64,000 nucleotides of DNA from Blasia pusilla. Taxonomy: Eukaryota. Below, piece by piece: positions 4,965 to 57,700 of the stretch (positions are counted from its first letter, which is position 1; each line of letters begins with the position of its first letter). Where the stretch lies: NCBI GenBank assembly GCA_050084515.1, contig CM114271.1:47368001-47432000 (forward strand). The letters run 5' to 3'. The position numbers and the translations under genes are program-made. The notes below the pieces were generated by a model. That model did not search any database. It was given only the letters and a program-made list of their open reading frames with translations, and had not been told where the DNA came from.

Positions 4965-5140
4965 CTCAGCTTGATGAGACGCCGAGTTGAGAACTTGGTG
5001 GGTTGGAACGCTGGTTGGCCAAGACCTGACTAACGAGAGTGCGTGTTTGGTTGCAGATCGACGATGAGATCGTGTCCTACTGAACGTACGCTTCCGCAAC
5101 AATAAAGACTGACGTTTAAGGAGAGTAGGGGCGCGACAAG

Positions 5141-5152
5141 TGGTATCAGAGC
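5141..5152 (+). promoter_or_regulatory. Primer-binding site (tRNA-iMet type); second copy at 5445-5456
   Basis: TGGTATCAGAGC two bases after the LTR-terminal CA at both positions. Confidence 0.9.
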
Positions 5153-5559
5153 TAATCCTTGGTGAGCGATAACTTGGGGTTTTGTGAAACCGGACTCTTG
5201 GGAAAACTCAAGGTAGCGGCTAGACTCATACGCTCCAGGAGAGACGCAAGAAACGAGGAGGAGATGTGAGTGAGTTGGCTTGAAAATGGCGATTGAGGGA
5301 GAACAACCCAAGAAGCATCGAATCAAGCGACATGAATCAAGAGTGCGTGTTTGGGTGTAGATTGGTGATGAGATCATGTCCTAGTGAACGTACACTTCCG
5401 CAACAATAAAGACTGATGTTCAAGGAGAGTAGGGGCGCGACAAGTGGTATCAGAGCAGATGTCCTAGCAAAGCAAGCAGATCGCAGAGTTAGAGGCCACT
5501 CGAACTCTGGGTGCGGGCAAAAAGCTCTGCAAGACAAACCTGCCCACGCCATTCACTCG

Positions 5560-11704: not shown

Positions 11705-12876
11705 CCGACCCTCCTTTGCCAAAAGGGGGGAGGGGGGTTTATTGGAGAACCCCAGAAGTACTAGTAAGAGGGAAGGTCTCCGAGAGTGCTTGGAACTCGA
11801 ATCCCACTTTGGGCGCCACGGGGCGGCTCAAGGGCATGCACTAGAAGAAATCCCTGGTTTTATGACTAGGTTATATGACTCATATGAGTCATATTTTACA
11901 TACCACGACTAACAATGACTAACGACTACTTTAGACACAAAAGCCAAGTCATATTTGTTTGGCGACTAGGCTAACTAGGATGGTTAGCTTAGGTGGAGGT
12001 TGGTATATGACTAGAGGGTGTAGTCATGAGGCCATGACTAACACGTCACTCAGATGACGTGGAATAATGACACATCATCAATGACATGGACTATTTAGTG
12101 TGATGTGTCACTGATGACATGGACTATTGCTGTGACATGTCACTCATGATGTGGACTTGAGTACGACTCGTCTAGTCATATGTGTATATTTTTCTAGTTA
12201 CCACCAACGACTCCTTTAGTCATGGTTGGTGTGCAAAATTTCAGGATATCCTATCAAAATGCACCAAGTATACTCCATTGAGTTATAATTGGCAACTCAT
12301 GTAGTCATTTTATTTTATTGAAATGTTGGTATGGACTCATGTAGTCATGTACTATGACTAGAAGAATAGAGTTACATGACTACTATAAAAGAGGACACAA
12401 TTGGTTTAGTCGTGAAGATATGACTATATGAGTAGCGGAAATTATATAGCCATTGCAACAGAACTGCATGAGTCATACAATTATGACTAGAGAGAACTTG
12501 AAGCTTACTACTTTAGTTTTTGAAGAATACTGTGCAAGTTATATTGATATGACTAGTGGGAATATAAATTTTTGATATTTTGGAATATTTATTATGCCTT
12601 TTGAACGGTGCAAGAATGAATGGATCTGAATTATTGAAATCCTCTTTTGAAAACAGATTTTGAGGGGTGGAATGTCACTTAAGAGTAGCTTCCATACACC
12701 AAATTACAAAATTAATCATTATTACATAGGGTTATCATTCAAAAATAGATAAAAATACAAATATAAAATATAATAGGGTTTATGATCTCATCTTGAAAGA
12801 GCAAGAGAGATTATGTCATCCATGAAAACAAAGTTATTGCACCTTAGATAGTTGGGTGCCAAAAGAAAAGACTACT

Positions 12877-21459: not shown

Positions 21460-21660
<201 letters not shown>

Positions 21661-22344: not shown

Positions 22345-24070
22345 GAAAAATGGAAGGAGCACTAGGAACATTACTTGTAAGTTACTCCTCTTCCACTTTC
22401 TTGTTCATTTGATGTTCCTTATCCTCCAAAACAAGCCCATAAATCATGAAACTTGATCACACCATGCCCTTCACGTTAGGACCCAAGGGGGAAAAAAAAT
22501 AAAACCTCAAATGCTTCTTGGGGTTTGGGAGTTAAAAATCAAAAACCCTTAGCTCAGGTCTTCATTTTTTAATGCAGCATGGAGAATTCTATATAAGATC
22601 TACACCGTCCAAGTTCAAGAGGGGCATAACCACCCACAAATTTCCAGGTTTAAGCTCCATCCAATAGTGGCATCAAATGATGAGTGGCAAAAAAGGTGAA
22701 AAATGGAAGGAGGACTAGGAAAATGACTTGTAAGTCACTCCTCTTCCACTTTCTCCTTCATTTGATGTTCCTTCTCCTCCAAAACAAGCCCATAAATCAT
22801 GAAACTTGATCACACCATGCCCTTCATGGTCAGGGCCCCAAGGAAAAAAATAAAACCCCAAATGCTCCCAGAGTTTGGGAGTTAAAAAGTCCTCCTCCTC
22901 CTTCTTCATCTATCATTTTCTCCCCTCCCCATCAATCGTGAGTCCAAAAATCATGAATTTTTTTCCAAAGGGGCACCTCAACCCCAGGAACACAGGGGAA
23001 AAGAAAAAACTACAAATTACCACTCACACATGGAATTAAAAACCTTAAATCCTAACTAAGGATTTTTATTTTTCATTTTAGCATCAAGGCGTAAATGGCA
23101 AATCTAAACCGTTGAAGATGTGGAGAAATTTAATAAAAGTGCTATGGAAAAGATTCATTACCATCCAATGGTGGGAAGAAAAATTATCACCATGTTAACA
23201 TGAAAGTGACTCTTTTTCGACCCTTGCCCCTCAACGAGGGTTCCGAAAACCAAGGAAATTTTCCTAAACCCTAAACCCCAACCCCAGGAACACAAGGCAA
23301 AAGAAAAAACTTCAAATGACCATTACACATTGAATTAAAAATCGTAAACCCTAAATAAGGACTTTGATTTTTGGTACTAGCATGGAAGCTTAAGGGACAG
23401 ATTTGAACCGTTGAGCGTGTGGAAGAATTTAATGGCAAGGCTTGTGCCAAGTTTCACCACCATCCAATGGTTGGAAGAAGAGTAAAAACTATAATAACAT
23501 GAAATTGCAACAATGACTTGAGACAATTCTACTCAATGCCATCATCCACTTGCATGACACCTCTTTTTCTACCCTCCCCCCTCAACCAGGAGTTGAAAAA
23601 ACAAGAAACGGTTCCTAGATAGCCACCCCAACCCCAACCCCACGAACACAAGGAAGAAGAAAAAACTTCAAATGATCACTCACACATTGAATAAAAAATC
23701 GTTATCCCTAAATAAGGACTTTGATTTTTGGTACTAGCATAGAGGGCTATGGGATAGATCCAAACCGTTGCAATTGTGTAAGCATTAAATAGCAAAGCAT
23801 GTGCCAACTTTCAAGACCATCCAATGGTTGGAAGAAGAGTCAACACCATAATAACATGAAATTGCAACAAGGATTCGAAACAATCCTACTTAATGCCCTC
23901 CTCCCCCATCATGACACCTCTTTTTCGACCCTCCCACTTCAACGAGGGGTCAAAGAATGAGAGAATTAATGCAAAGTCTTGTGCTTACTTTTATCACCAT
24001 CTTATGGTTGGATGAAAAGATATCTCCATGTTAACATGAAAATGACACAAGGACTCTGAATAATCCTACT
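22345..24070. repeat. Degenerate tandem repeats (~300-360 bp spacing) in the CACTA 5' region
   Basis: Recurring AAAATGGAAGGAG...CTCCAAAACAAGCCCATAAATCATGAAACTTGATCACACCATGCC (2x) and ACCCCAGGAACACA...CATCCAATGG...AACATGAAA (3-4x). Confidence 0.8.
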
Positions 24071-27000
24071 CAAAATGGGAGCATGAAATCATTTAAACAT
24101 ATGAGTCGTTGCTTATGACTCATCTTTACTAGGCAAGTGAAACAAGTCTGACTCGTCGTGACTAGTGGGTATTGAAAACTTCTTTAGTCATAAGGAGATG
24201 ACTCAATGAGTTGTACGACCCTAAATTTTATGACTAAACCATTTAAGTACTAATTTGAGTATTCTTTTGGTGAGTCATTTAAAGTCTAGTCATAAAAACC
24301 ACCCATTTCTTCTAGTGATGGAATGGACCGAGAGTTTGGGGTTGGGTTGGAAAACCTGAACCAAGTCTATGGAGGAGATTTTAGACATCCCTCTTGGATT
24401 TCACCCCACGACTGAAATCTTACTTGGGTCTCGGTTTGGAACTCACACAAGGTCCGTTGAACAGTTGGGATCGCTAGGCGCGCAAGTGCCGTTTTAGGTT
24501 CCTGGACTAATCAAGAAGTCTGTTCCAAGTCTTGAAGGTGGGTTGAGCTTGATGAGACGCCGAGTTGAGAACTCGGTGGGTTGAACGCTGGTTGGCCCAG
24601 ACCCGACTAACGAGAGTGCGTGTTTGGGTGCAGATCGGCGATGAGATCGTGTCCTACTGAACGTACGCTTCCGCAACAATAAAGACTAACGTTCAAGGAG
24701 AGTAGGGGTGCGACATTGCTAGACTCAACTCATCTCAAGTCTTGGTTCACGTTTAGTCCGCTTGGAGTTTGTTTCATTATGAGGGTCGCGACAACATATG
24801 CCATCCTCGAGAACACCCATCCTTCGAGGCAACTTGTGGTAGCTCGGGGCGAGTGGGCGTGAGAGGGGGAGTAAGGAGCAAGGAGCAAGCAAGCAAGCTT
24901 GCTTGCTTGGGCGTTAGGCAGTTTTTGTAGGATTTGTGATTTGAGTGTTGTATAACTGGTCACCCATCTTTGGGCTATTCTGCATGGAGGACGCTTGACT
25001 ACTGAGTTCTTAACTATGCCAGTGTACACACTGGTGTAGCTCATTTGGTGCTGTTCGGAGATGTGTTAGGCGCTTTATGCATCTCAGGTTTTTGGTTGAT
25101 GTACCTCTAGCACATAGTACGGTGTAGCCTCTCCATGCAGGTGATATTTTCAGGTGCTGCGAGTCCGACTAGCACGTCATCAACCCCGGCGGAGTAGCTT
25201 TTGCGTTAGAATTGTGTGGTGGGTTCTGTGGATTCAGGGGGCGTCACGTTTGGTGGATTGTGTTACCTTGATTTCCATTTGCGATTGGAGGATTGTCATT
25301 GGACTTCCTGTGTTTGGATCCCCTCCATCATTGCTTCTTGCTTGCGCGCCCATTGTTAGGATTGACGCTGATTTCCAGAGTAGTGTTACTCCTGTGTGCT
25401 ACCGATAGTGAGGTTGGAGTGATGACGAGTAGACCGTGGGAGGCTTCTTGTGGTGATGACACGTTAGGTTGCCTACACCCATAGCTAGTAGAGCTAGAAT
25501 AGTATAGCAACATCGACGTCACTTGGTTACTTAGTGGTGATAATTTGGTGGTGGTGCGGCATCGGCGTTGGTCATCACGGAGCTGTCGGGTGGTCTGGTT
25601 GGGGACCGTGGTGCGGACAGTGGTGGTTTCACACAGAGTGGATTTAGGAATCGGCTACCTTTTCCACTTCTGACGGTTGATGAAGAGGAGGACGAGGGTG
25701 TTCCAAACACCAAGTCTTCTACGTTGTTATCGAGTGTTGCAACTCCATTGATTTGGGACATGGACGGGATATATGGGGCCATGAAGGGTCCACGACGATA
25801 CTCGAGTGCAGTGGGCACCATTGAGTTGGAGGACTTCATGCAGGAGTTTGATACGTGGTGTGATATGCAGATGTTGCGGAATGTTCAGAACCACCATCGT
25901 TTAGCCCAGTTGCAGAGTTCTTCAAGAGGTTGAAGAAGAACTATTAGGGAGTGAAGACAGAGAAGTTGAGGAGTCTTCAAGAATTTGAGCAAAAGACTGG
26001 TGAGAGTCTTTGTGAGGCATACACTCGTATGCGATGCTTGATTTCAGTTACCTAGGGTGTGAGTGAGGCTCAGGCAGTCCAGTTTTGGTATGGAATCTTG
26101 GACAGAGAGTTGCGCCGCAGGGTACGTGATGCTACTCTTATGAGTGATGATTCACCCACATTGACCCATGTGTTTGCTCTATCTGAGAAGATTGAGCTTA
26201 ACATGATGAAGGAGAGAGTGGTGACATCCGCATTCAGTAGGGATTCAACTACTATTTCTCGTGTTCAGCAGCCCACCTCACAGTCTCGTAGTAGTGGTGG
26301 TGGTCGTAGTAGTGGAAGTCGTGGGGGGTACACACGACCTCAGTCAGGTCCTAGAGGGACACTTGCGCAGAGACCATTGCCTTCATTTGCTGCCCCGCAG
26401 CAAGGACAATCATGTTGGACATGTGGAGGTGATCATGTTAGGAAGTTTTGTGCCCAAGAGGATGGGAGACGGACTTTGGAGGATGGGCCTCAGTTGGCCC
26501 CAACTCACTGTGATCATTGCGGGAGACCAGGTCATCCTCGAGAGCGTTGCTTTGATCTTCATCCAAAGTTGAGATCAGGCCGCGGCCGTGGTGGAGTACC
26601 TCCGAGAGGCCGAGGTGGTAGAGGTGGACCAATGGTTGGAGAGCCTACGGTGGCCACCCCTACCACTACGACAGAGTCAGCTATGGCTGCCAGGATTGAG
26701 CAGTTGGAGCAGAAGTTGGCTACTATGGCTGGTATCCAGCATAGATCAGGTTCGGGAGCAGGGGCTTCCATCTCTTATGGAGGGGATCATCTCTCTTATA
26801 TCGTGAGTGCAAGACCTGAGTTGAGGCATCAAGCTGCGATTCGAGAGGAGCCACTCGGCGTCGAGCCATGTGGTGCTCTTGTGGAGTTGGACCCCTGAGA
26901 GGATGAGGCGGGGAGGCGAGGCTAGGCTTCCCGAGTCATTCTTGTTGTCTGAGGTGCTAAGGACTCCATCCATGGTTCCTACGTAGCCTATTGAGCCGCA

Positions 27001-28156
27001 GTGGGGGGACCGAGGCATCTACATTGCGTGTAGTAGACACGGATGCAAAGCATCGAAGGCAAGATGTGCGGATGGCAACCGGTGTTGGGATCCCCATTGT
27101 TTTCGGCCACGAGGCGATGGCTTTAGGAGTTGACTTAGTTCTTGTATTTCAGCTAGCGACCCGCGTTGTGTGAACGTGGGGTGTATTCTTGCTACACGTC
27201 TTTGAGGTGGATGAGGGTGTTGCGGTGGAGCGACCCTCTATGTCGGTGTAGCATTGAGTACTTGTGCTACTTAGCGGCAAAGCGGCGAAGATGGATGCAT
27301 TACCAGCCCAGCCAACCATTGATCGTGAGAGGCTTACACCTTGTGTATGTATGTTGGACAACCGGAGTGGGATATTCCGATTGGTGAGTCCTACATGACA
27401 TGTGTATAGACCAAATAGAGTCTTGTTAGACTCTGGTGCCCAACCTTTGATGTTGGGAAAGGCGGCATGTATTGGTTTGGGTATTTGGAGGTCAGAGCTT
27501 GAGCCTTGCCCATTCCAGATTCAAACATCACTTGGAGGAGCCAATGATAGGTCTCAATTTATGACACGGGAGAAGTTTTCTGTACAGTTGAGACCAGATC
27601 ATGCGACTGATAGCTCTTGATTGGGAGTATCTGCGGTAGTCACATCAGCCGAGTCGTATGATGTACTAGTTGGAGGAGCAACATTGTACCCGATGGGTTT
27701 TGGATGGATTCTTGGGTCGAGGCGGCGTCTTATAGACCTGGTTGGCAGTCCGGGGATGGACGTATGAGCCAAGTTCTTGTGAGATTTATTTATGGGGCTC
27801 GACCAGGAGGGTCTTCCCCAACGGTGTTAGCATCTGTGGCTGGTTATAGTGGAGTAGTCACTTGGCCAGGAGACTTTTTGGAGGGTAATGTTTTTGCTAT
27901 GGATTCTCGTGTGCATGAGGAGGTAGAGGAGGTCCCTATTTTTGCAGCAGTGGCATCCTCATCGTTGGATGTGCCACTTTGGAGTTCAGGCGGTGCACTA
28001 CGGCAAGAGGCTGATCGCCTAGTGCAGGAGGCTTGGTGTGAGGTTGTTATACCTCACGAGGAAGAGGAGGCCCCACGGCGGAATCCTACTTCTGGTCCAA
28101 TTGGATTATCCCCTTTGGATTCTGCACCCATTGTATGGCAGTATCCGCCGGAGGGC

Positions 28157-29100
28157 ATTTGTGTGTTAGATCTCTTTGGTGGGATTAGCACTGGTTTGGC
28201 TGCAGTGTTGCAGGCCGGTATTCCTGTGCGGAGATATGTGTATGTGGAGCAAGATGAGACGGCCTAGAGAGTCTCATCCCGACATATTGGTCAGTTGATG
28301 CGGAGATATCCTGAGTTGTTGCCGCCATCAACTATTCGTGAGTACCAGCGTGCTTTGCCGTCACACATTGCATTGTTGGGGGCGCAGGACCTTGAGAGGG
28401 TTGGTCCTGTGGATTTGGTGATTTCTGGATGGCCATGTCAGGATCATACACGTGCTGGTCGTGGTGAGGGATTACACGACCCTAGGTCTCGATTGGTTTG
28501 GGAGATGTTATGGGTGTTATGACATCTTCAGGTTCATCAGGCACATGCTCTAGCTTACATTCTGGAGAATGTTCCATTGTTGGGTGACACTCGGACCCGG
28601 ATGATGGCGAGTGTTCATGAGGTGCGGTCTTGGATTGGACCAGCGGTGTTGTTGGATGCAGCGCGAGTTGGCTCGCGTGCACATCGTCCACGCTTGTGGT
28701 GGACAAACTTGTTGCCTAGGGAGGCTCTACGTCGAGCATATGATGCAGTGCAGCGGGATCCTTGCGTTACAGTGGATAGTATCTTAGATACTGGGCGACT
28801 TTCTCAGGTGGTGAGGGTTATTGATCGATCACCCATGGCAGTGGTGAACCGTGTGGGCCAGCCTAGGATGGCACTACCCACATTTGTGAGTTTTCCCTCG
28901 TCACATGCCTACAGGGAAGGTGGTCCCGGGCTTGTATGGGATTCTCATGTGTGCGGCGATTGGTGGAGCCTAACGCTGATGAGAGAGAGCGTGCGATGGG
29001 ATTTGCTACTGGCGTGACAGAGGTTGCTTCCATTTCTGAGGCTTCACGACGTCATGTGTTGGGTAGGCCATGGACCTGAATTTTTTGACTTGGATTTTGA
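28157..29100 (+). pseudogene. DNMT3-like DNA (cytosine-5) methyltransferase domain inside the polyprotein
   Basis: Motif I LDLFGGI (28166-28186), motif II YVYVE, motif IV DLVISGWPCQ (PC 28433-28438), motif VI LENV (ENV 28565-28573), motif VIII AHRPRLWWTNL (RxR 28685-28693), motif IX ERERAMGFATGVT (from 28981), motif X SRRHVLG. Confidence 0.9.
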
Positions 29101-32100
29101 GTCTTGGTATGGCCGAGCAGCGTCGACTTTGGACTAGGTCTGTGGGTCTTCCACCCCTTGTAATGAGCTCGATGGCTATCGGGACGGTAGAGGCATCGGC
29201 TGGGGGCGAGGAGAGTAGTATTTTGCATCCTTGGAGTAAATGGGATGTAATGGCTAGGCATGTGGAGTTGGTTGCTCATGCTGGTGGAGGAGTTATTTGC
29301 TCAGATGATGGTGTAGCTAAGGGTGTACCATCTTGTGAGGGGATTGCATAGTAGCCAATGGCATCGTCCTCTCCCTCTAGTGTGCCAGTGGAGGAGACTT
29401 GGGAGCCATTACTTGGGCCCAAGCTTACGGGAGGTGAGAAACGACGCTTGACACAGTTCCTACGTGCTTATAGGAGTTGTTTTGCCTTTCGCATGAAGGA
29501 GTTGGGTTCTCTGGTTGGACCCGGTATACGGATTGATTTGGCTAGTGATACGCCAATCTTCTGTCGTCTCTACCGATATAGTGATATGGAGAGGGACCTG
29601 ATTCAGAGTAGAACGTTGGACCTTTTGGAGGCTGGATTAGTGGAGTTGTCGCATGGAGAGTATGCATGAGCCACTGTCATGCCTGCTAAAAAGGATATGC
29701 ATGGCAACTACACGGATACGCGGATGTGTGGAGATTACCGTCCTATCAATCGGCAAACCAAGGCCGATAGGTATGCCATGCCTACACCTGAGGAGATCTT
29801 TGATGTGGTGGGACAGGAAAAGATTTTCAGTACTTTGGATCTTCGGGCAGGATACCATCAATTGCCGATTCGGGAGAGTGACAAGGCCAAGACAGCATTT
29901 TGGGGTGTCAACTCTCATGGCAAGGATTGTTTGTACGAGTGGAAATTCTTACCCTTTGGGTTGAAGAATGCACTTGCCGAGTTTCAGAGAGTGAGGGACA
30001 GGATCCTAGCAAGGTTGGATTTTGTTCGGTGTTACATTGATGATATCTTGGTGTTCAGTAACACGGTGGAGGAGCATCGGATACATTTGCAGATGGTGTT
30101 TGAGTGGTTGAAAGCTTATGGTCTACGTTTGCATCCAGGAAAGTGTAAGTTCTTCCATGAGGATGTTGAGTACTTGGGTCATGTGATCTATCCAGGTGGT
30201 TTGGGAGTGCAACAAGCAAAGGTGGAGGCTATTGCACTTATTCCGCGTCCGGTAGATGTGAGTAGAGTTCGAGCATTCATGGGATTGGCGAACTACTATC
30301 GGAGGTATGTGAAGGGATTTAGTGCTATGGCAAAGCCTTTGAACCAATTTCTGAAATCAGATCAAGAGTGGCACTGGGGAGATGATCAGGAGAGAGCTTT
30401 TGTGGAGCTTAAGGCCCAGTTGGCGGCGGCGCCTATCTTGAGGAGACCTATCAGAGGGCGCCCATTTCAGTTACACACTGATTGGAGTAGGTTGGGACTT
30501 GGAGCGGTGTTGACACTACATGATGATGAGCACATGGAGTTTGTGGTGGCCTATGCAAGTCATTCAAATAATGCAGCGGAGTCGCGCTATAGTTCATATG
30601 AGGGAGAGTGCTTGGCAGTAGTGTGGGCTGTGACACACTTTAGATGTTACTTGTTTGGCACACAAATTACCCTTGTTACTGATCACCAACCGCTCAAGTG
30701 GTTGATGGAGTCTGACAAGCTTACAGGGAAGCTAGCACGGTGGGCTCTTATCTTACAGGAGTATGACTTCCAGGTGGTACATAGATCTGGAGTTGCCAAC
30801 CTTGATGCTGATGGGTTGAGTAGGAATCCATGTACTAGCCAAGAGGATACAACTGGGGCTAGATGGCATGGCGAGGTTGATTAGGAGATGGTGCAAGGTT
30901 GGCATGCATCCGCCTTTTTATGTTGGTTAGGGGTGGACTCTAGTATGGAGGACCACATGACATCTTACTCTAGTCAGAGGGTAGATGGCCAACCTTCAGA
31001 TTCTAAGGTTGGAGATGGTGGAACAGATCAGCGTGATATTCATGATGATGCGTTGGTGTTGGAGTTCCTACGGAGCAGTAGGGTGCCAGGCATAGTGAGT
31101 GCCAAGGAGCAAGACCGTGTTCTTCAACGTGCTAAGAGGTATCGATTGGAGGGAACACATATTCTCCGTGTGTGGGAGGATGGTAGAATACGAGTAGTGC
31201 CGGATTTGGCTCAGAGAGAGTGCATTGTGCGACATGCCCATGAGGAGTTGGGACATTTTGGGGTAAAGCGTACGTATAGCTTACTCCTTGGTCAGTATTG
31301 GTGGCGAGGCATGCATACTCAGGTGCAGCAGTTGGTGTCACGTTGTATGGTTTGTGACCGGGTGAGGGCATCATTCAATGCCCCTATACCACAGTTATAC
31401 CCCTTGCCTATTATGGGGTTGGATTACCGTTGGAGTGTGGACTTTGCGGGACCGTTACCGTTGACTGTACGAAATCATGGATATGTGTTGGTGATGGTGG
31501 AGCACTTCTACAAGTGGATTGAGTTGGTGCCATTACCTGACAAGGCAAGTGAGGGAACGGCGTATGCGTTTCTTGATAGAGTGCTTAGTCATTTTGGTGC
31601 ACCAGCTGAAGTGCTGACCGACCAGGGTACAGAGTTTCAGGATGAGTTTCATGTCTTGTGTGACAAGGCGTTGATTGATCATCAGACCATGTCTCGAGAT
31701 CATCCAGAGGCGGATGGTTTGGCTGAGCGTGTGGTTCAGACGGTGAAGAGGGCATTGCGCAAGTATGGCCTCTGAAGGGCATCTTGAGACCAGGATATTC
31801 AGTTGCCATGGTAAGCCATGGGGTATAGGTTCAGTCGCCAAGCATCCTTGGCTTCCTTCTCACCTTATTTTCTGTTATACGGCTAAGATCCAAACTTGCC
31901 AGAAGCAATTCGTTGGGCGTCTAGTGAGGTGGTGAACCTTGATGACCCAGAGATGTGGATGAGAGTCTGTTCTCAGCGGGCAGAGCTCTGGCGGAGAGTT
32001 TTGCCAACAGCCTTTGAGAATCTTGCCATTGCTCAACACAGGGATACGTTGCCGTATGCAACCATTCGGGGTGGAGGTTATCGACCATCGATTCGTAGGT

Positions 32101-32333
32101 TCCATGTGGGGGACTATGTCTATTTGCAGCGGATTGCACCAACAACGTTGGATGTGACGGCAGGCCGCACTATTTTACGAGTGCGCGAGGTGTTAGCTTA
32201 TGGAGTTCTCATGTTGGAGGGTCGTGATGGAGTTGTTTGGAAGGACCATATGCGTAATTGTGCGCCATGTCATCTTCCAAATGTGGATGTTACTGTTGAC
32301 CCAAGCTTAGCCATGATACGTGCTAGCTTGAGG

Positions 32334-32468
32334 TGCATGTTGTGTGGGTCTGCTGGTAACGCAGCCCGTATGTTGGTGTGTGATCGATGTTCTAGGGGTT
32401 GGCACATGATGTCTTTGACTCCACATATGGATGTTGTTCCTACTGGAAGGTGGGTTTGTCCTCGATGT
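32334..32468 (+). other. PHD zinc finger at the integrase C-terminus
   Basis: CMLC...MLVCDRCSRGWHMMSL...GRWVCPRC fits C4-H-C3 spacing. One Cys is lost here but present in copy 2 (HMLCL). Confidence 0.88.
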
Positions 32469-33211
32469 ACTTAGGAGGGGTAGATTACTTGATCTTTGCA
32501 TGATATGGATTACAGATGTGCGACTAACGATGGGGCAACCTAGCACCCGGCCTTCTGATTCGTGCACCCAAGAAGGTGTATAGCATGTAGTAGATGTATA
32601 GGGCTACCTGGGAGTTAGAGGGACCTAACCGCCAGTTAGGGGGGCGAATTGTGGTACACTTGTGTTTGTGGATGCTCTCGTCTATGTTATGTATGTATGT
32701 GAGTATGGTATGTCAGCGATGTATATTGTATGATGATGTGGATTCGCACGACAGCTGTCATGACCTTACGGATTATGTCGTAGAGTATAGTGTGCTAGTA
32801 GAGGCCATACCTTATGTAGAGCCATAGTGTCTAGGTAGAGATGCGATTTCATACATAGGGTTGGGGGTTACTCAGTTGAGGGTGACTTTTCCAATAGGGC
32901 CCGCTCTTAGGTTGGAGGATATAAGGTGCAATGCACTCAAAGTTGAGCCTGTTGCGTTGGGAGTTAGCCTTGGTAGTGAGTAGAGCTCTTGGCTATGATG
33001 TTTCTGGCAAGCTTCGACCTAGATTCTCCCATTGTGGAGTGGGTTTGGCTCGATTGTATGTGATTCTATACGTATTTTATGACAGTAGGTCTTTCACGGA
33101 TTTCAATTGTGGTACACTTGTGTTTGTGGATGCTCTCGTCTATGTTATGTATGTATGTGATTATGGTATGTCAGCGATGTATGTTGTATGACGATGTGGA
33201 TTCGCACGACA

Positions 33212-33340
33212 GCTGGTTGGCCCAGACCCGACTAACGAGAGTGTGTGTTTGGATGCAGATCGGCCATGAGATCGTGTCCTACTGAACGTACGCTTCCGCA
33301 ACAATAAAGACTGACGTTCAAGGAGAGTAGGGGCGCGACA
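33212..33340 (+). repeat. 3' (U5) end of LTR-A
   Basis: Near-identical to 24587-24715. Followed by AGCAA, which also lies at 4034-4038. Confidence 0.88.
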
Positions 33341-33750
33341 AGCAAGGTTGGTTGCCAAAGAGATGAGAACCAGGTTTGGAACGCGACTAGCATTTGGGGT
33401 TTTGACTATATTTTGGACCATAACATTTAGTTATGAGATTCATTTGGGAAAAATAAGATAGCGTTAGAAATCTTATGCAAATTCACTTCCAATGCACCAA
33501 AGATCTTAGCAAACTCAAAAGCAAAGGCTGAGATATTTGCCAAAAACAACTATATGATGAGTTTAGTTGAGGGCAAAAATGAGGGGCTTAATTGTAAATT
33601 TTTTGTGCGCCTACTCTCCTTGAACGTAAATCTTAAGTGTTGCGAAAGCGTGTGTTTAGTAGGAAATGCTCTCATAACTTATCAATACCCAAACAAGCAT
33701 TCACGTTAGTCAGGTCTACGTCAAACAGCTCAAGTACTCGACTCGGACTC

Positions 33751-35738
33751 GTTAGGTCCCTCTAGCTCTACATAGTCTACAAAACAAGTCTAAATGTTTT
33801 GCATCTTTTCTGTGCTAAGATCATAGGTTCAAGTGCTATGTCGTCTCATCGTTAGTCACCCTCCTGGAATCCATAACATCAAGAGTCATCTTGTTATCTA
33901 CTTATCACTCCTACGTGCATCTGGGACAAAGCCAACGTCCCCGAGGAACCAAGTCAAGAGGTGGCATCAAACACAACATATGTCATGTGTCTACTCTCAC
34001 TGAACGTAAACCTTTAGTGTCATGGAAGCGTGCGTTCTGTAGGGCACGCTTTCAATGCTAATCTGCACCCAAACACGCACTCATGTTAGTCAGGTCTGGG
34101 TCAATCAACGCTCTAACTCTCCGAGTTCTTGACTCGGCCTCTCATCAAGCTCAACCTTCCTAGTTTACAACACAACCAAGTCTTTTAAGACTTGGGAAAA
34201 ACTTTTTGGTCGGTTAAGGAACCTCAAATCGCGTTTGCAGGCTTGGCGGTCCCAACTGTCCAATGGACATCCAATGAGTCCCTAACCAAAACTCACAAAA
34301 GTGAGTCGCAGGTTGGCATCCAAGTGTGGCTTAAGAAATCCACTTCCTTGGATGAAGTTTGGGTTTCAAGTCCCAACGCCAAACTTCCGTTCCATCCCGT
34401 TCCCTTGAGCCGTGGTTTGGCGTCCAAAGTGGGGTTTGGGTTCCAAGAATCCTTGGAGATACTCCCCCTTACTAGTATTCCTACCACTAACTTTGGAGAA
34501 AGAGAGTTGGGCCCCTCATTTTGGCCCTCAATCCAACTCCTCTTACATTCATTTACGGAAAATATCTCAACCTCTACTTAAGCGGTTTCTGAGATCTTTA
34601 ATGCGTTGTAATTGCCTTTGCAAAAGATTTCCAACACCACCTTACTTGTCCCAAACACATCTTGGGACAAAATGTTATGGTCCGAAACACTCTCAAAATC
34701 CCCAAACGCTAGTCATGTTCCAAATCTTGTTCTCACTGCTTTGGCAACCAGCCTTCCTAGACTCAACTCATCTCAAGACTTGGTTCACGTTTGGTCCACG
34801 TTTCCTAGTCGCGACCATAAACGCATGAAACGCACAAACTCTATTGCGCATTTCTTCTCTTGGACTTTTCCAAGAGACCTCTCCAAAGGGCAACCATCCT
34901 AGCATGAGCTTGCTAAAGTTTTGATGTTCTGCTTGGCGTTTGTTTGGTTATGAGGATCATGACACTTTTCCCCAAAATTAGGGGGACGGCGGAGATCCTA
35001 TGTAGTACTAGTAAGGGAGAGTGTCTCCAAGGATTCTTGGGACCCAAACCCCACTTTGGGTGCCAAAGGGCGGCTCAAGGGCACGAGATGGAACAGGAGT
35101 TTGGCATTGGGACTTGAAACCCAAACCTGATCCAAGGGAGTGGATTTCAAAAGCCACACTTGGATTCTTACCCGCAACTTATTTTTGTAAGTCTCGATTA
35201 GAGAGTCATTGGAGGTCCATTTGATAGTTGGGACCGCTAGGCGTGCAAACCTCGTTTGAGGTTCTTGAATGGATCATAAAGTTTGTCCCAAGTCTTGAGA
35301 GACTTGCCTATGTTGTAAATGAAGAAACTAGGAAAGTTGAGTTTGATGAGAGGCCGAGTCAAGAACTCGGAGAGTTAGAGCATTGATTGACCCAAACCCG
35401 ACTAATGTGAGTGTGTGTTTGGGTGCAGATCAGCATTGATAGCGTGTCCTAATAAACGCACGCTTCCACAACACTAAAGATTTACGTTCAAGGAGAGTAG
35501 GCACATGACATATGTTGTGTTTGACGCCACCGCTTGACTTGGTTCCTTAGGGACGTTGGCTTTGTCCCAGATGCACGTAGGAGTGATAAGTAGATAACAA
35601 GATGACTCTTGATGTTATGGATTCCAGGAAGGTGAAACGATGGGATAACATAGCACTTGACCCTTTGATCTTAGCACCGAAAATATGCCTAGCATTAAGA
35701 ATTGTTTTGTAGACTATCTAGGTTTAGAGGGACCTAAC
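33751..35738. repeat. Long inverted repeat (arms ~33751-34500 and ~34965-35738) including a full inverted LTR-B at 33981-34964
   Basis: For example GTTAGGTCCCTCTA (33751) vs TAGAGGGACCTAAC (to 35738), and CCTGGAATCCATAACATCAAGAGTCATCTTGTTATCTACTTATCACTCCTACGTGCATCTGGGACAAAGCCAACGTCC is mirrored at ~35550-35630. Confidence 0.9.
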
Positions 35739-47410: not shown

Positions 47411-49799
47411 AAAGCAGAAAATATAGAAAAAGGCCAAAAGAGCTTACCAAATTAACTTTGAGAGTATGAATTGTTGTTGTATCTTCTTTTCCTCCACTAC
47501 CACTCGAAAACACCTCTAATCCATGCATTGTCTTTGCTAGTTCCCCCCACCTACATCAACTTCAGATGCCCTCAAATGATCTAAACGTATGGGTGTTCTC
47601 CTCCTCCAAGTTGCGTGACTACAATTTTTTCTTATACCTGAGATTGTATAGTCAACACTCACACCCATCAACGCATGAATTATGTTCAATACTCATCACT
47701 AAGGAAAAGTGGTCTCTGAGTGACAATATCCACACCAAATTCTTCACCATAATTAGAAAATATGCCTTCTGTCTAGATGAATGAATGAATGAATGAATGA
47801 ACTATGGTAGGAGTAAAATCTATTTGGAATTTTTGATCAATGAAGTAAACACAATATGTTTGGAAATTGTGACTTACGAGTTAGACTTCCTCATATTGAC
47901 ATCCTCGGGTGACAAACTATCGCCCACCAAACCAATAACAAAAATCCACATGCACCTACTGATCCACTAAGAGAATCGAGTTGGTTTGGCATATTCGATT
48001 CACCAATTGCTTTTAGTATGTCTAATAACCACGGGTGATCAAAAAGTGCTCCAAAGTTTGCATGCCTCGATCCATCATGAAGGATTTTTTGGGTTGTTAG
48101 ACAATCCCTATCTATGATCATCCTCTCCGTGGTTTGGAAATCTTGAGCCACCAAAATACTTGTTACCTTCAATGTGGAAGTAGTAGCAACTTATGGAAGT
48201 ACTTGGTCAAATAGGTTGCCTACTACATGGAATGCTTTCTTTGAAAATTATTTTTTAAGATGATGATAATAATAATACTAAAAATCATTGAAAAAATCTT
48301 ATTTTAAAGGGGATTAGTTAAGTAAAGCAACAACCATAGGCATGTTGGTTTGATATTCTTGTAAAACTTAAAGGGATCCCGTCAAAGTAGTACGTCGTAT
48401 AAAAGATTTCGTATAAAATCTTTATTTCTTTTTGGAAAAAAAAAGAAAACAAACGAGATCTCATGGAATTTCAGCTCGTAGGCTTTCCCAAGACATGATT
48501 CTTTGCCATAGGCCCGTTCCTTCCTAGCCGGTGCATCATTGATGTTAAGGTTGGTCTCTATCATCCCGTTGTCGATATCTTAGCGATCTCAAGCTGTCAT
48601 CTAATTTGGGATGGCTAACGTCCTTGCCACAATCTATTTGTGCAGATACTACCATGGCTTTAATTTTGCCACACACAACCTTCAACACCATCGACTTTGC
48701 CATTGTTGTACCATACCGCTTATGACCACAACATATTATTGAGGATAATCGAGGTGCGTCAATATCAAGGAGTACGTGCACTTGATTAGATGACTAGAGA
48801 AGTTTGGTCTTACAACAAGTTAGGGTCGAGTTACAATTTCCAAGGAGAGACATCGATATTTTGTTTCAAGTTATCCATTCTAGGCCCTTGTCCTACAATT
48901 GTGAAGGATTTCGAGTGTTAGGTTTTTGTTATAGATTTTGGTTTGAGGGTATGCTGTGAGCTTCATTGATGTATGAGAGTAGGGGACATAGACCTAAAAG
49001 GGATGCTCAGAGTGATATTATTTTCCTTTGTTGACTAGGGGATAGGCCAACATAAATTATTTCCTACCCACACCGCTTGTTGCTATGCCATCCACATCTA
49101 AGAGTGAAGGAGTGTAGGTTTGAGTCCCACACATTTGTAGTTTCAAGTGATTGAGAGTTTACTCGTGAGGGTAATAGTGATCGTGTGAAAGGTGCATAAG
49201 TATCACCACAGGTTTCGTGGTTCTGAGAGGTGACCTGTCAAGAATAGCAATGGCAAGGAGGGTTTACACAAAGTGGTATGAGGTATCGAGGAGGGATCGA
49301 CTTGAATTCCCTCTAAGTCATCCTCAAACGGAGGAGAGACTTCAGAGGAGTTCCCTACTACTTCACCCTAGGCATTGAGTGGTTCCAACATGTGGGCCTA
49401 AAAGATGGATGACCAGGGTAGAGGACCACATAGGTTTCTAAGAGCCGTGGGAATCATCGAGTTGTACAACTTTATTTTACAGTTTCAAAGTAAGTGCGAC
49501 TCCCAGAGGGTGAGGAACTCCCGAGAGTTCAACCTTTTCGCAACATGAAACGACATGTTTCAACTTTTGGAGGGATGGCCGACGGATGACTAGCATGAAT
49601 TCTTGAGTAGGTTTTTAGCGTAGATTGAGGCCAAAAAAATTTACTACGATCCACGCTTTGTGTCATGGATAGAGTCATTTGCAAATGAGGAGGAGATGGG
49701 AAAAGCTACCTCCTCCACTACTAGCGAGGCCTAAGGAGGGGTGACTCATTGAAGAATTATTGTATTGTCTAGTCAAGTTAGTCCAAGGTTCAACCTTGT

Positions 49800-52700
49800 G
49801 GTTGAGTTCTTTGCGAACTTGAAGAGGAACTACTAGGAAGTACAAACCAAGCAGATGAAGAGATTCCATGAAATCCAATCAACGGATTAGAGAAAGTTTG
49901 CACAAGGCGCTCACATGCTTGTTGTGGAAAAAGTGCTAAGCAAGCATAACTGGTGGAAAATGGCTCACACACACCACCACCACCACCACCATGGAGAACA
50001 AAATTTGCAATGAGAGAATGAGTGGAGGCTGGTCCCTTTCTCAATTTTATAGGGTATGTACAAGCAACCCTAACCCTAACCTTAGTCTCAAGCTAGACTA
50101 ACTGTGATTAACTAACCATGGTTAAGATAATCGCGCTTAACTGCCTAACCAAGATTAAGCTTCCCCTACTTTGAATGAGTACCAAATATAGCAGTTCAAG
50201 TGTCTCATGAGCTTGACTGTAACTCAACCTTCAATACTCCCCCTCAAGCTCATATTGATATCTCTAACACCTAAATCATTTCTAAACACCCCAAACTTAT
50301 CTCTCGACAATGCTTTTGTAAACATGTCAGCGATTTGCTGATCTGTACCTATATACACAAGATCTATTTCTCTTGCAAGTACTTTCTCTCTGATAAAATG
50401 ATAGTGCACCTCAACATGCTTTGTACGAGCATGAAACACATGGTTATTAGCAAGCTTGATGCTACTAATATTGTCTGTATATATTACACTAGGTCCTAAG
50501 TTACTAACACCAATCTCAACAAGTAATCGATGAAGCCATAGTGCCTCATATGCTGCATTGGTTGCTCCTCTGTACTCAGCCTCTGTTGAAGATAATTGTA
50601 GGTTGCTTCTTTGAAGCCCAACTTATAGCTGCGCTTCCCAAAGTTAATGAATAACCAGATGTGGAGTGTCGATTAGACACGCTTCTTGCCCAATCAGCAT
50701 ATGTGAATCCTTGTAATTGAAAACTCGGAGAAGGTTCAAACTGAAGCCCGAATTGAATAGAGAATTTCACATACCGCATAATCCTCCTCACAGCATCAAG
50801 GTGAGATTTTCGAGAAGCTTGCATAAACTGGCTCACTAGGCCAACAACATAGCTCAAATCTAGTCTGATTAAAGTTAAATAGATCAAACTTCCAATCAGG
50901 CCCCTCTACATATTAGAATCTGCAAGCAACTCTCCTTCATCCACTCTTAGCTTCAAGCTCTAGTCCAACGGTGTAGAGATTGGCTTACAAGTCGTTATAC
51001 CATATTTTGAAAGCATATGAAGAGTTTATTGTCATTGTAGTAACTACATGCTTTCTCCAACTTTGATAAACTCAATACCAAGGAAGTACTTGAGTTCTTC
51101 CAAGTCCTTCATATCAAATTCTGCTTGTAACTTAAGCTTGACTTGTTGTACCATTTCTTCAGTACTCCCAATAATCAGGAGGTCGTCAACATACAACACA
51201 ATGAGAACCGTATGATCTTGTCCTCTCAAGACATATAACGAGGAGTTAGAATCACATACCCTAAAACCCAACTCTTGTAGGACGTATGTAATCTTGCCAT
51301 ACCAAGCTCTTGGAGCTTGTTTGAGCCCATATAGAGCTTTCTTCAACATGCATATGTAAAATGGAAACTTGGGATGCTCGTATCCAAGTGGTTAAGTCAT
51401 ATATATCTCCTCGTATAGATCTCCATTCAAGAAGGCATTCTTGACGTCCATGTGATGTAATCTCCACTTCTTACTTATTGCAAGTGCAACCACTGTTCTC
51501 GTAGTCGCCATCTTTGCAACGAGGCTAAATTTTTCCTCATAATCGATACCATATTGTTGTGCACAGCCCTTAGCCATCAATGTCGCTTTGTATCTATTAA
51601 TTGTACCATCTTGATTGCGCTTGATTTTGTAAACCCATTTGCAACCAATATCTTCCTTATCGAAAGGTATATCAACCAGCTCCCATGTTTGTTGATGTCT
51701 AAATGCAGCAAGCTCTTCCTCCATAGCTTCAATCCATTCGACTTTACTTGCAGCTTCTTCAAAACAACTCGGCTTATGTTCTTGAAGGGTAGTTATCATA
51801 TATGCATGATGTGTTGCAAGAAAACCTTCATTTATGAATCTATGAACTGGATGTGTAACTCTACTTGATCTACGAAGTTATTGTTCAGAAGTAGATGCCT
51901 TTGGCACCTGACTCAAGCTTTGACTAGTGTCAACAGACTGAATACGTATTCTTCCCGTCCATGGACCCACATATTTAATTGATGAATCCAGGACCTTTCC
52001 TAATCTTGCACTAGTACTTGGGGAAGTTGAAGACAACGTTTGTTGGTTTACAGTCATATTCTCCCCCTCAACAGACAAGTTTAGAGGTGGAATAGGCTCA
52101 GACAGAGCATACCATGACTTAAGCTCATCAAAGACAACATCCCGACTAATAATAAGCTGCCTAGAGGATGGAATATAGCACTTATACCTCTTAGTTCCAT
52201 CAGCATAACCAATGAAGATACATCTTTCAGACTTAGGGTCTAATTTTTGACGTCTCTCAAAAGGAACATGAGCATAACAAATACACCCAAATACTTTCAA
52301 GAAGGAAAATCAGATTTATTTCCTATGAAGACTTCAAAAGGTGTTTTATCATGAACTCCTGCTGTTGGAGTTCGATTGGAGCTACAGCCTCTGCCCAATA
52401 GACCTTAGGCATGTTCTTATCATTCAACATAGCTCGTGCCCCTTCAGCAATATGTCGATTCTTCCTCTCAGCCACTCCATTTTGTTGTGGAGTGTAACGG
52501 CAAGTCACTTGACGTTGGATGCCATTCTGACGTAAATAGTCATCAAATTCTGTTGAAAGATACTCTCCTCCTCCATCACAATGTAATTTCAGAACGTGTT
52601 CTCCAATCTGCTTCTCTAGTAGAACTCTGAATGTTTGGAACACTAAGAATACCTCTAACTTGGCTTTCAGAAAGTATACCCATATATACCTAGATCATTC

Positions 52701-54725: not shown

Positions 54726-57700
54726 CTTGCAAGCATTGATTAGTGTCTCTTAAGGAGTGATTGAGGTCCACGTTGTCCAAGCAAGTAACAAAACACTAGA
54801 ATGTGATTTGAGGAGAAGAGTGAGGGTTGCAACTTTTCTTTTATCACACCTTAGCTATTTTGAGAGATATTTTTGAGGTGGTTGGGCGTATTAAGGGAAA
54901 AATGGCAGAGGAGAGTGTAATGGCCTTGAGCTACCTGAGAGAGATGTCGTGAGGAATGACCACTCCACAAATGTAGTAGCGTCCAGCTAGAGAGTGAAGT
55001 GTGCCATCTAGGGTGCTTGGAGGTTAGTAAGAGCCCATGAGGCTGAGGCATATGCCATCATATGTGGGCCAACAACAGCCGAGAGTGACTTTTTGGGCAT
55101 GTGGTGGGGCCCATCATCAACAAGATTGCAAGTGCCAAGGGAGTGGACATGCCTTTCTAGCCTTATGACCAAGTCGACCTCCATCCAAAACCTTCCATTG
55201 TGACCAATGTGAACGGTGTGATCACACCCGTGAGAGGTGCTTTGCGCACCTCACACCCTTAGTTACAACTTCATAGAGAACGTAAGAGGGTGCAAAAGAG
55301 AGTTGGAAGACCGAGTGCAACTAGAGGGTGCGGAACAAGAGGACCAACAAGTGGTCCCATGGGAGGACAAGGTGGTAGACATGCTTGTAGAGATGGGCAA
55401 GGCCCGCCATCTAGACGAGTCGAGGGAGGTCCCACTTCTGAGGCTGGGATAGGGCCTAGATTGAGCAAATTTAGCAACAGATTGCAGCAATGACGTTCAG
55501 GTTACTAGATTTGAGATCAATGGCATCAACCTCTTATGGAGCAGGTAGGGATTCAGAGGCTCTCGTGTGGATGTGCAGGTCTCCACAGATGGAGGCAATC
55601 ATCGTGGTTACACGTGGAGCAGCAACATAGTTGGATCCATAGAGACGCAAAGCCAAGAAGCAAACCGGGCTCCATTTGTTACTCAAATTGTTTGAGGTGA
55701 GGAGGACTCCTCCATGGGACCTATTTAGAGTTCTTGGAGAATAGATGGTGGTGTTGGAGTGTTGATATCACAAGTAATAGGTAGAATGAGAGCGACCATG
55801 TCTATTTCCAAGGCTCAAGAGGAGCCCATACCAAGTTCCATGCTAGGGGAAACCATAACATTATACAGCACCCTATTATTTTGTGCTTCTGATGTTATAG
55901 CGTTGGGAGGTACGTCTATCAACATGTTTCGATTGGCCGCCACCATATGTGAGCATGGAGGTGATTTTTATGCCTCATTATTAGAGGTCATTGTAGAGGA
56001 GTTGGTGGAATTTCCCTCGGAGCTAATGCTCAGGATATTCACCATTGGTTCATATCAAGGTGCGGTTGCTCGATTGGTGGAGTTGCCAACTAGACCCGCT
56101 ATAGGGCGTGCTATGGTTTCACCCGGAGTGGTATCGTTGGACAACCAGAGTGAAATCTTTTACTTGGTTAGTCATATAGGTTTAGTTTATTGTCCCCAAC
56201 GTGCCTTGTTGGATTCGGGAGCACAACCTTTGATGTTGAGAAAAGGAAATTTTAGGGGCTTAGGATTGACTCATGCTAATATGGAGCGATGTCCATTACG
56301 CATTCAGATGTCATTGGGAGGAGCTAGTATGACCCAATTCATCACCCGCTAGAAGATTACAACGAGGCTCATGCTAGAGCATCCGAACTGATGAGTCCGT
56401 GGTGCGTGCCAAGGTGATAGTGACCAATGCCAAGTCCTACGATGGCTTGGTTGGTGGAGAATTGAAATATTATACCCAATGGCGTTTGCCCTAGATTATT
56501 GGGAGGAGTCGACCTTTCATAGACCAGGATGGAAGTTCAGTGATGGATGTATAAGCTTGTTGCCACTTTGGCTTATTGGCAGTGTGATCGGCAATGACTA
56601 GGAGATCGAGGTGGCAACCTTAGCTGCATTCAATCGTGCCATCACCTAGCCATGAGATTTTGTTGGATGTAGCAAGTGTTGGATCACGTGGGCATCATTT
56701 GAAACTTTGGTGGACAAATTTGGTGCCGCATGAGATGATGCAGAGGGATTATGTTAGTGTGGATTGACCCTCTTTTTTGTTGGTGGATTTGACCTTGGAT
56801 CCTGGGCGTTGATTGCAGGCACTGAGGCATCGTAATCAATCTCCGTTAAGTTTGGTGAATCAAGTAGGCATACCTAGGGCAACACTTCCCACACTAGTGA
56901 GTTTTCCCGCCCCCCACGTCTTTAATGAGGGTAGCCCAACAATTAGTGGAGCCCAATGTTGATGAGTAAGTGCATACGATGGGGTTTCCAACAAGAGTGA
57001 CGGTAGTATTGTCATTGACAAAGGTGCTTGACACCATGTGCTTGGCTAGGTTATGAACCTAAATTTTATTACATGGATTATCATCCTAAGATTAGCTAAA
57101 TAGCGTCATATGCAATTGAGGCACATCACCTCTGAATCCTTAATAAGCCCTTAGACGGTACATGCCTTGGCTAGGGCCGATGTGGGAGAAGACCTAGAGG
57201 TCACAAGTGATCGTGGGAGATATCTTTGGAGATCGTGGGATGTGATGCAGGTAGACCTAAACATGGCAACCATAACACTTGATGTTGGCTAGGGCATTGA
57301 TCGTCAAGGAGTGTCGAGAGTAGAGAGATCTAAATTGGCTGCATGAGAGTATATCAATATATAGCAATGGTATTGACGAGGTTGCACAATAGCAACCAAA
57401 CCCCATGTTAGAGAGTCCAACCATCACGTTGGAAACTTGTGAGCTAGACATCATGCCCAAGTTGATAGGAGGACAATGACGCCACATACATAAATTTGTG
57501 AGGAGTCACAAGAGCTACTTTACATTTAGGGTGTAAGATTTGGGTACACTAAAGGGTCCAAGGATCCACATCAAATTGTCTCGTGCGATGCTTTGGTAGA
57601 GACCAAAGGTTTAGTCAAGTAGGTCATAGATGACCTAATGGGAAGTAGGGTAACCTACTAGAATATGTTTCCCCTTTGTGTGGACCCACTTGGAGGTCAT

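Follow-up and report, generated by a model that had tools for sequence, protein, structure and literature searches.

This study concerns a 64,000-nucleotide stretch of Blasia pusilla DNA (contig CM114271.1, positions 47,368,001 to 47,432,000 of the forward strand; hereafter the window) and a Ty3/gypsy-type retrotransposon within it that carries its own DNMT3-like cytosine methyltransferase. The closest described system is KnitGypsy-Dnmt3 of the charophyte Klebsormidium nitens, where, in the passages of the paper that describe it, a DNMT3 domain lies in the Pol of a Gypsy element, has a ratio of non-synonymous to synonymous substitutions (Ka/Ks) below 0.2 and is accompanied by DIRS-like repeats (PMC5890265). 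Retrotransposon-borne silencing enzymes of this sort have been known as a curiosity of one charophyte alga and of dinoflagellates. Because two recent papers use 'streptophyte Gypsy-DNMT3' as the name of the kind in the passages concerned, their authors may know of a wider occurrence (bioRxiv 10.64898/2026.05.21.726589, PMC12344493). As for land plants, the relevant part of an inventory for Marchantia polymorpha lists five methyltransferases and no DNMT3 (Schmid 2018, PMC5784723), and the excerpted passages of a liverwort transposon paper leave a methyltransferase unmentioned (PMC9985172). Our literature searches found no description of such elements in liverworts or mosses, and the Marchantia gene identifiers considered below appeared in no paper found. 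This agrees with the original prediction, made from the window's sequence alone, that no land-plant family is well described; the family is nevertheless present, unremarked, in Marchantia and Sphagnum gene models.

Between approximately 25.5 and 33.2 kb, on the plus strand, the window contains a copy of a Ty3/gypsy-type retrotransposon that is dead and truncated at its 5' end. The domains of its one Gag-Pol stand in the order gag - protease - DNMT3-like C5 cytosine methyltransferase - reverse transcriptase (RT) - RNase H - integrase - PHD finger, with the Ty3/gypsy Pol order of protease, RT, RNase H and integrase carried by matches to RVT_1, RT_RNaseH, Integrase_H2C2 and rve. In identity and family membership, the element is very probably a land-plant member of the Gypsy-DNMT3 kind described from K. 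nitens. As set out in the corresponding passages and in the legend to Fig. 4 of PMC5890265, both have an intronless, non-permuted DNMT3-like domain within the Gypsy Pol open reading frame (ORF), both show purifying selection (Ka/Ks below 0.2 there, 0.16-0.22 here), and both have DIRS-type terminal repeats, compared here by description, instead of plain long terminal repeats (LTRs). They differ in that the host there is a charophyte with few copies, and here a bryophyte-grade land plant in which copy number is very high. No K. nitens protein was among the named matches of our protein searches, and the likeness is thus one of description and anatomy. The coding features of the element are as follows.

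25528..26919, plus strand: degenerate gag, with frame changes at approximately 25885 and at 26820-26919 (tblastn with residues 1-470 of the Marchantia protein P0162)
27009..27701, plus strand: aspartic protease region, with LLDSGAQ at 27423-27443 and a frameshift at approximately 27690
27683..28156, plus strand: linker between protease and methyltransferase, conserved across the family, matching no Pfam family
28157..29100, plus strand: DNMT3-like C5 cytosine methyltransferase domain, motifs I-X linear (PF00145, matches to solved structures, motif alignment)
29355..30881, plus strand: RT and RNase H (RVT_1 E 7.8e-31, RT_RNaseH E 1.3e-34), with a stop at 29667-29669
30885..31772, plus strand: integrase, with H2C2 zinc finger and rve core (Integrase_H2C2 E 7.7e-16, rve E 1.2e-11)
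31887..32471, plus strand: C-terminal extension of the integrase, ending in a PHD finger at 32334-32468 (PF00628 E 1.8e-8)

Nucleotide homology to two relatives in metagenome contigs, loci L009 and L033, begins at 25528. No Pfam family matched the gag ORF, and the protease region is 51-56% identical to the Marchantia proteins P0165 and P0162 by tblastn. Pfam calls the RVT_1/RNase H span at 29670-30881, and an in-frame stop (30882-30884) lies directly upstream of the integrase. Breaks beyond those of the original prediction are thus frameshifts at approximately 25885, 26820-26919 and approximately 27690 and in-frame stops at 29667, 30882 and 31773. The closest solved structures to the PHD finger are those of KMT2C, CHD4, DPF2/3, ATXR5, KDM5 and PHF21A, most of which read the unmodified histone H3 tail. 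An accessory PHD finger in a Gypsy Gag-Pol is also known from Gypsy-7a_cRei of Chlamydomonas, with the difference that the finger there precedes the integrase (RT-RH-PHD-INT) and that no methyltransferase is reported in the passages describing it (bioRxiv 10.1101/2022.06.16.496473). The 'Chlamyvir' clade was considered as a further parallel and rejected, the relevant passages describing chromodomains there and not PHD fingers (PMC6317226, PMC3350952).

The original prediction had placed an ordered set of C5-methyltransferase motifs between protease and RT, and every motif was found where it had been read, on the plus strand, with LLDSGAQ upstream and RVT_1 downstream. Motifs I (FxGxG), IV (PC), VI (ENV), VIII (RxR), IX and X are all linear, the last two in shifted frames. 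LDLFGGIS (motif I) lies at approximately 28169-28192, the Cys codon of GWPCQ (motif IV) occupies 28436-28438, and ENV is found at 28565-28573 and AHRPRLWWTN at approximately 28679-28708; ERERAMGF..T falls in the frame 1 segment (28945-29067), and RRHVLG just upstream of 29067. The two predicted stops coincide with ORF ends (TAG at 28265-28267, TGA at 28520-28522), and tblastn with intact Marchantia relatives places the two predicted frameshifts at 28945-28951 (frame 2 to frame 1, approximately 28948) and at 29058-29067 (frame 1 to frame 3, approximately 29062).

The domain was assigned with P0001, a read-through translation of 452 residues with X at the stops, running from the linker through the domain and including approximately 160 residues upstream. 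In the profile check that the original prediction had proposed, P0001 matches PF00145 at 28.4 bits (E 1.5e-6; gathering cut-off 22), and one uninterrupted piece of the domain alone scores 22.9 bits. Among solved structures, phmmer places DNMT3A catalytic domains first (E 3.7e-11, as against 6e-4 for DRM and 0.08 for M.HaeIII). A 30-sequence family profile gives the same ranking with far lower E values, with DNMT3A at 3e-24 and DNMT3C/3B at 4e-22 to 2e-20, followed by plant DRM (3.5e-16 to 1e-13), M.HhaI (4e-9) and DNMT2 (2.5e-3), and retrieves no DNMT1, MET1 or CMT chain at E≤0.01. When the AlphaFold model of an intact relative (L009:10475-11386; mean predicted local distance difference test score 88.7, predicted template modelling score 0.88) was submitted to Foldseek, every row listed among the best 50 was a DNMT3A/3B/3C catalytic domain, with E down to 4.9e-18 and template modelling scores of 0.65-0.72 over 305-311 aligned columns, the full length, at 21-24% identity. 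This ranking by sequence, profile and predicted fold supports DNMT3 as the closest kin of the domain among characterised methyltransferases, in preference to MET1, CMT and DRM, as the original prediction had it. The element's domain shares with animal DNMT3A/3B/3C the linear motifs and a similar layout between motifs VIII and IX; in contrast to them it sits inside a polyprotein and reads PCQ in place of PCN. It has beside it no PWWP or ADD domain, the chromatin-reading companions found in animals, where land plants have a DUF; PF00145 is the sole Pfam match in the 452 residues of P0001, and the element's PHD finger is approximately 1000 residues downstream, at the end of the integrase. The closest ESM Atlas clusters are generic PF00145 groups, mostly viral, and add nothing beyond family membership.

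Within the element family, the methyltransferase is an integral module under selection and no secondary insertion. Searched against 1.84 billion representative proteins, P0001 finds 2228 at E≤1e-3, of which 171 reach E≤1e-30; many of these relatives are 1000-3200 residues long and match in mid-protein, and the best 150 all belong to the retrotransposon clade. P0031 encodes a CCHC knuckle, protease, DNA_methylase, RVT_1, RNase H and integrase in one ORF of 2188 amino acids. A search for longer proteins gave 17 matches, comprising 15 Marchantia polymorpha models filed as 'hypothetical protein' (62-75%), one JGI entry and one Sphagnum fallax protein (47%), with one model labelled 'DNA (cytosine-5...' by one source; the profile search adds Cz02g39130 of Chromochloris zofingiensis. 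Pfam and tblastn resolve the Marchantia model P0162 as gag-protease-DNMT, and P0165 and P0168 as DNMT-RT-RNase H.

Scanning metagenome contigs with the profile of family alignment A3 yielded 64 loci, 39 of them of at least 4 kb. In 27 of these 39 the methyltransferase is followed by RT on the same strand at near-constant spacing; the remainder comprise one locus with the order RNase H-DNMT-integrase (L044), one with an internal deletion, six at a contig edge and four weak, unrelated-looking matches. The number of independent loci is below 27, since L030/L033, L021/L026, L015/L016 and L019/L020 are the same element in different assemblies. Intact methyltransferase ORFs are present in L009, L012, L025, L036 and L044, and L036 has a 1369-residue ORF spanning gag, protease and DNMT. 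Contigs deposited under a second organism label are 97% identical across the methyltransferase.

A second, far more diverged element of the family, copy B, lies downstream in the window itself, as two segments.

49420..49878, plus strand: N-terminal part of the gag of copy B (tblastn with residues 9-164 of P0162)
54739..57581, plus strand: continuation of copy B, with gag and protease, then the methyltransferase (C-terminal half only) and the beginning of RT, where it is truncated

Its protease (56185-56382; 54% amino-acid match with that of the first element), methyltransferase (56624-57250) and RT start (57432-57581) retain the family order. The N-terminal half of the methyltransferase, with motifs I-IV, is missing, and the C-terminal half lies between protease and RT. 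A Ty1/copia element on the minus strand (50224-54327; RVT_2, rve, gag_pre-integrs, Pol_BBD) is nested within the gag of copy B and divides it. In an ordinary gypsy element elsewhere in the window (5705-8931), approximately 160 amino acids separate protease from RT and there is no methyltransferase; since it lacks any such stretch, the extra length of approximately 690 amino acids is specific to the DNMT-bearing family. The original prediction had suggested looking for genomic copies without the domain and for a separate insertion around it. Position is retained in copy B, in the 27 metagenome loci and in the Marchantia models; self-comparison of the window found no repeats bounding the methyltransferase stretch, and P0031 and L036 run through it in single ORFs.

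Across the wider family, the domain occupies one of two positions. Among 105 long proteins containing it, 74 have the order RNase H-DNMT-integrase, 26 have protease-DNMT-RT and five show the domain by itself. The first order is represented by an intact 2092-residue ORF in L044, and further examples are P0014, P0038, P0074 and P0299-P0303, with Chromochloris zofingiensis as one named host. These green-algal and environmental gypsy polyproteins (Cz02g39130, L044) resemble the window element in the clade of DNMT that they carry (35-41% identity) and in their integrase-PHD tail; they differ in having DNMT between RNase H and integrase, where the window element has it between protease and RT. When the domain was placed in a quick maximum-likelihood tree of 105 rows and 322 columns, a single branch with an SH-like approximate likelihood ratio (SH-aLRT) of 98 separated the 74 rows of the first order from the 27 rows of the window's order. 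One change of state is enough to account for their distribution, which none of 500 label shuffles equalled; as the tree is unrooted, the earlier order cannot be told from it. The window copy falls into a fully supported group of 17 rows with 12 Marchantia rows, a Sphagnum row and three unnamed rows. Within this group it joins, with support 81, a metagenome locus and the protein from Sphagnum fallax, and not the 12 Marchantia rows. Set beside the liverwort-like host gene described below, this grouping could point to old subfamilies or to transfer between bryophytes, the support being too weak to choose.

The domain is part of Pol, is conserved like RT, keeps its catalytic residues in intact relatives and is transcribed with the element. 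Residue conservation was read from three family alignments (A1, A3 and A4; 11-30 sequences, 22-32% mean column identity). All three show no variation at the ENV Glu or at the second RxR Arg. The first RxR Arg does not vary in two of them and exceeds 90% in the third; the catalytic Cys is fully conserved in A3, with values over 90% in A1 and A4, and the glycines of motif I are either fixed or more than 90% conserved. Ratios of non-synonymous to synonymous substitution rates (dN/dS) were obtained by the Nei-Gojobori method. Compared with L001, L009 and L012 over 261-263 codons, the part of the window DNMT that lies in frame 2 has a dN of 0.12-0.15 and a dS of 0.70-0.78, giving dN/dS of 0.16-0.22; deeper DNMT pairs give 0.12-0.21, and RT against L001, L002 and L013 gives 0.12-0.13.

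In the source organism, the DNMT-bearing family is high-copy and sense-transcribed. Read depth was taken over positions 23500-34500 from DNA reads and from two stranded RNA runs carrying the same species label. DNA word depth per bin is 15,000-129,000 from 24601 to 33408 and drops to 1,500 in the bin that follows. Over the same span, RNA depth per bin for first mates on the minus strand, which corresponds to sense, is 5.6-186 (42-64 across the methyltransferase), as against 0-11 on the plus strand. An RNA-only joint, 30996->32000, removes 1003 nt, including most of the integrase, and is seen in 16 reads of one run and 30 of the other, with seven extra letters between its sides in one run. The DNA joints listed do not include it, and it could represent either a transcribed deletion variant or a processed RNA.

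Several observations weigh against this overall reading of the element and its enzyme. The window element as a whole has at least five in-frame stops and five frameshifts, making protein production from it impossible, and stop-free, single-frame DNMT regions were found in only 3 of 14 examined, most relatives being degenerate. Only 55 of 4283 and 50 of 4216 RNA reads are at least 99% like the window copy, from which it follows that the transcripts stem from other copies. Among close, mostly degenerate copies, dN/dS is higher than in the deeper comparisons, with a median of 0.65 for DNMT (89 of 91 pairs, dS>0.05) and 0.57 for RT (28 of 36 pairs); these ratios fit neutral decay after insertion. 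The CpG observed/expected ratio on the element, 0.62, does not stand out from the 0.45-0.76 found elsewhere in the window and thus gives no sign of special methylation on the element. Motif IV reads PCQ like bacterial enzymes, with PCN in DNMT3A. Descriptions of the domain as of the 'DNMT3 clade' and of the 'same acquisition as Klebsormidium' are based on ranking and shared anatomy. Finally, the K. nitens domain produced no methylation in yeast, a result that its authors, in the passage reporting it, call inconclusive (PMC5890265).

We can propose a role for the enzyme in intact copies. It would be translated within Gag-Pol and enter the particle with RT and integrase, and would then add 5-methylcytosine de novo to the element's double-stranded cDNA or to the freshly integrated copy. 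The PHD finger linked to the integrase may steer insertion to a particular histone H3 state, with a bias towards H3K4-unmethylated chromatin. Release by the protease, followed by methylation of cDNA or insertion site, is the hypothesis also advanced in the corresponding passages of de Mendoza 2018 (PMC5890265), and we hold methylation of the element's own DNA tentatively as the main role, its chances falling somewhat short of even. The methyltransferase might instead act on host chromatin, either at the target site and its flanks after PHD-guided integration or at other loci in trans, altering the methylome. The similarity of the PHD finger to readers of the histone H3 tail would suit such a role, as would a high-copy, transcribed family in which the enzyme could be plentiful, and accidental activity on the genome is raised in the discussion of de Mendoza 2018 (PMC5890265). 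We nonetheless regard it as unlikely, given that CpG depletion around the element is not distinctive and that the K. nitens methylome, in the part of the same paper that reports it, is land-plant-like despite its Gypsy-DNMT3 elements.

A role in which the domain no longer methylates DNA, being either an RNA methyltransferase or a non-catalytic polyprotein module that binds DNA or RT, seems more improbable still. Its position directly N-terminal to RT and the yeast result are compatible with it, as is the authors' suggestion, in the same passages, of RNA methylation by a LINE-borne enzyme (PMC5890265). Such a loss of function sits poorly with the conservation of the ENV Glu, RxR arginines, catalytic Cys and motif I glycines and with the DNMT2 match, which is far weaker (2.5e-3); in the predicted model, moreover, the alignment with DNA-bound DNMT3A/B structures extends over the entire fold, the stretch from motif VIII to motif IX included. 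That a host DNMT3 pseudogene, or a private nested insertion, came to lie between retrotransposon fragments by chance might be suspected from the stops and frameshifts that break the stretch and from a neighbourhood that is a mosaic of nested repeats. We give this practically no credence in view of the same position and spacing in copy B, 27 metagenome loci, Marchantia models and single long ORFs, the dN/dS well below 1 and near that of RT, the lack of bounding repeats and the ordinary gypsy element at 5705-8931 without the domain.

Methylation of the element's own DNA can be extended to a broader picture, in which an old gypsy lineage still alive in bryophytes combines a DNMT3-like methyltransferase, a PHD reader on its integrase and split direct repeats with 4-bp duplications made by the integrase, an unusual tool kit. 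Its enzyme would be an active de novo methyltransferase that pre-marks its cDNA and, the family being abundant and transcribed, also contributes to the host methylome; in this full form we find it doubtful. If it were true, DNMT3-like genes annotated in liverworts would be transposon genes (the part of the inventory cited above lists no DNMT3, PMC5784723). Annotations already include at least 15 transposon genes with this domain among the M. polymorpha models, plus one in Sphagnum, under the name 'hypothetical protein', and these can inflate or confuse DNMT3 inventories in comparative epigenetics. More generally, if the family is abundant and transcribed in bryophytes, with members in Marchantia polymorpha and Sphagnum, the question of the enzyme's role passes to land plants, and one of these hosts offers mutants, methylomes and transformation.

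The ends of the element present an anatomy of their own, made up of split direct repeats. The features at either side of the coding region are the following.

24318..24821, plus strand: repeat on the 5' side, either a leader or an unrelated repeat, with a 96% copy at 3933-4434 on the minus strand
32647..32755, plus strand: split direct repeat B1, ending ...CGACA, homologous to repeat B of L033
32756..33104, plus strand: split direct repeat A2, beginning TGTCATGACC, an internal copy of the family's 5' terminus
33105..33211, plus strand: split direct repeat B2, forming the element's 3' terminus and ending ...CGACA; DNA and RNA depth drop after the 33042-33408 bin
33212..33340, plus strand: 129-nt unit directly after B2, the same in kind as 24587-24715

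In the window, 32647-32755 and 33105-33215 are 97% identical. The element's ends were established from its relatives. L033 has a 342-nt repeat A at 1676-2017, approximately 1.5 kb upstream of gag, and again at 10350-10691 after the PHD region, where it is flanked by a 113-nt repeat B (10238-10350 and 10693-10805). Full-length relatives thus have the layout A1 ... B1-A2-B2, with no B beside A1 and no LTRs. Repeat A lies upstream of gag in 13 loci; L009 ends with B1-A2, and L011, L013 and L024 with a single B. The single-B form corresponds to the joint 32715->33177, found in many DNA contigs of the source organism, in which the A2 unit is missing. Homology among independent copies starts with TGTCATGACC and ends with ...CGACA, and TG...CA ends with 4-bp target duplications were read in three independent relatives (L033, AAGG; L024, TACA; L026, CACA). 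In both L033 and the window, the B1|A2 junction reads ...CGACA-GC-TGTCATG..., resembling joined ends.

The 5' terminal repeat A1 (TGTCATGACC...) was not found in the window, nor was the leader motif on the 5' side of the element; because B1, A2 and B2 are present and A1 is absent, the window copy is either 5'-truncated or rearranged. Its own target duplication is unreadable for want of the 5' end, although the ...CA 3' end is there. Self-comparison revealed no LTR pair around the element, its sides sharing only 129 nt, apart from which there is a 111-nt repeat. The shared segment is the core of the 5'-side repeat, 24587-24715, which recurs at 33212-33340; DNA word depth and sense RNA reads climb from approximately 24600. 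There are six copies of this 129-nt unit in the window, all ending ...GCGCGACA, and it is absent from all 64 metagenome loci. We had considered it as a mini-LTR, an idea dropped once the relatives revealed the true element ends. In the copy at 4968-5138 the unit is followed by AG and then by TGGTATCAGAGC, which we take to be a tRNA-iMet-type primer binding site. The 129-nt unit is probably flank, or the LTR end of another family, and outside the element.

The layout A1-ORFs-B1-A2-B2 is typical of PAT-like and Ngaro elements of the DIRS order, which the relatives match in their split repeats and in a B1|A2 junction resembling joined ends. They depart from PAT-like and Ngaro elements in having a DDE integrase with H2C2 in place of a tyrosine recombinase, together with 4-bp duplications and TG...CA ends. 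This combination of split direct repeats, DDE integrase and 4-bp duplications merits separate study as a replication anatomy.

The surroundings of the element contain further repeats and two host genes. Directly downstream lies an inverted duplication at 33344-35738 (33751-34477 against 35006-35738, 86% over 736 nt), holding more copies of the unit, of 129-170 nt, and short PHD-like coding remnants. At the other end of the window, integrase and PHD fragments of related elements, on both strands, occupy 2732-3965 and adjoin the inverted repeat copy at 3933-4434. The ordinary gypsy element mentioned above spans 4432-11838 as a separate Ty3/gypsy unit with gag (including CCHC), protease, RT, RNase H and integrase at 5705-8931, without methyltransferase, and is flanked by inverted repeats (4594-4968 against 10074-10447, 95%; 4432-4543 against 11707-11838); what is presumably a tRNA-iMet-type primer site lies within it at approximately 5141. 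A host gene for the iron-sulfur subunit of succinate dehydrogenase (Fer2_3) lies at 58551-59348 on the plus strand, copy B being truncated within approximately 1 kb of it. Its best named matches are from three liverworts, Calypogeia fissa (75%), Marchantia paleacea (75%) and Riccia fluitans (73%), and the other named matches among the 120 listed are nearly all from land plants, with one nematode and two without an organism name. By these matches the host is very probably a land plant with liverwort affinity. Exons of a Clp protease subunit occupy 62402-63421 on the minus strand, and a perfect tandem repeat with a 6-nt period extends over approximately 200 nt at 21462-21659.

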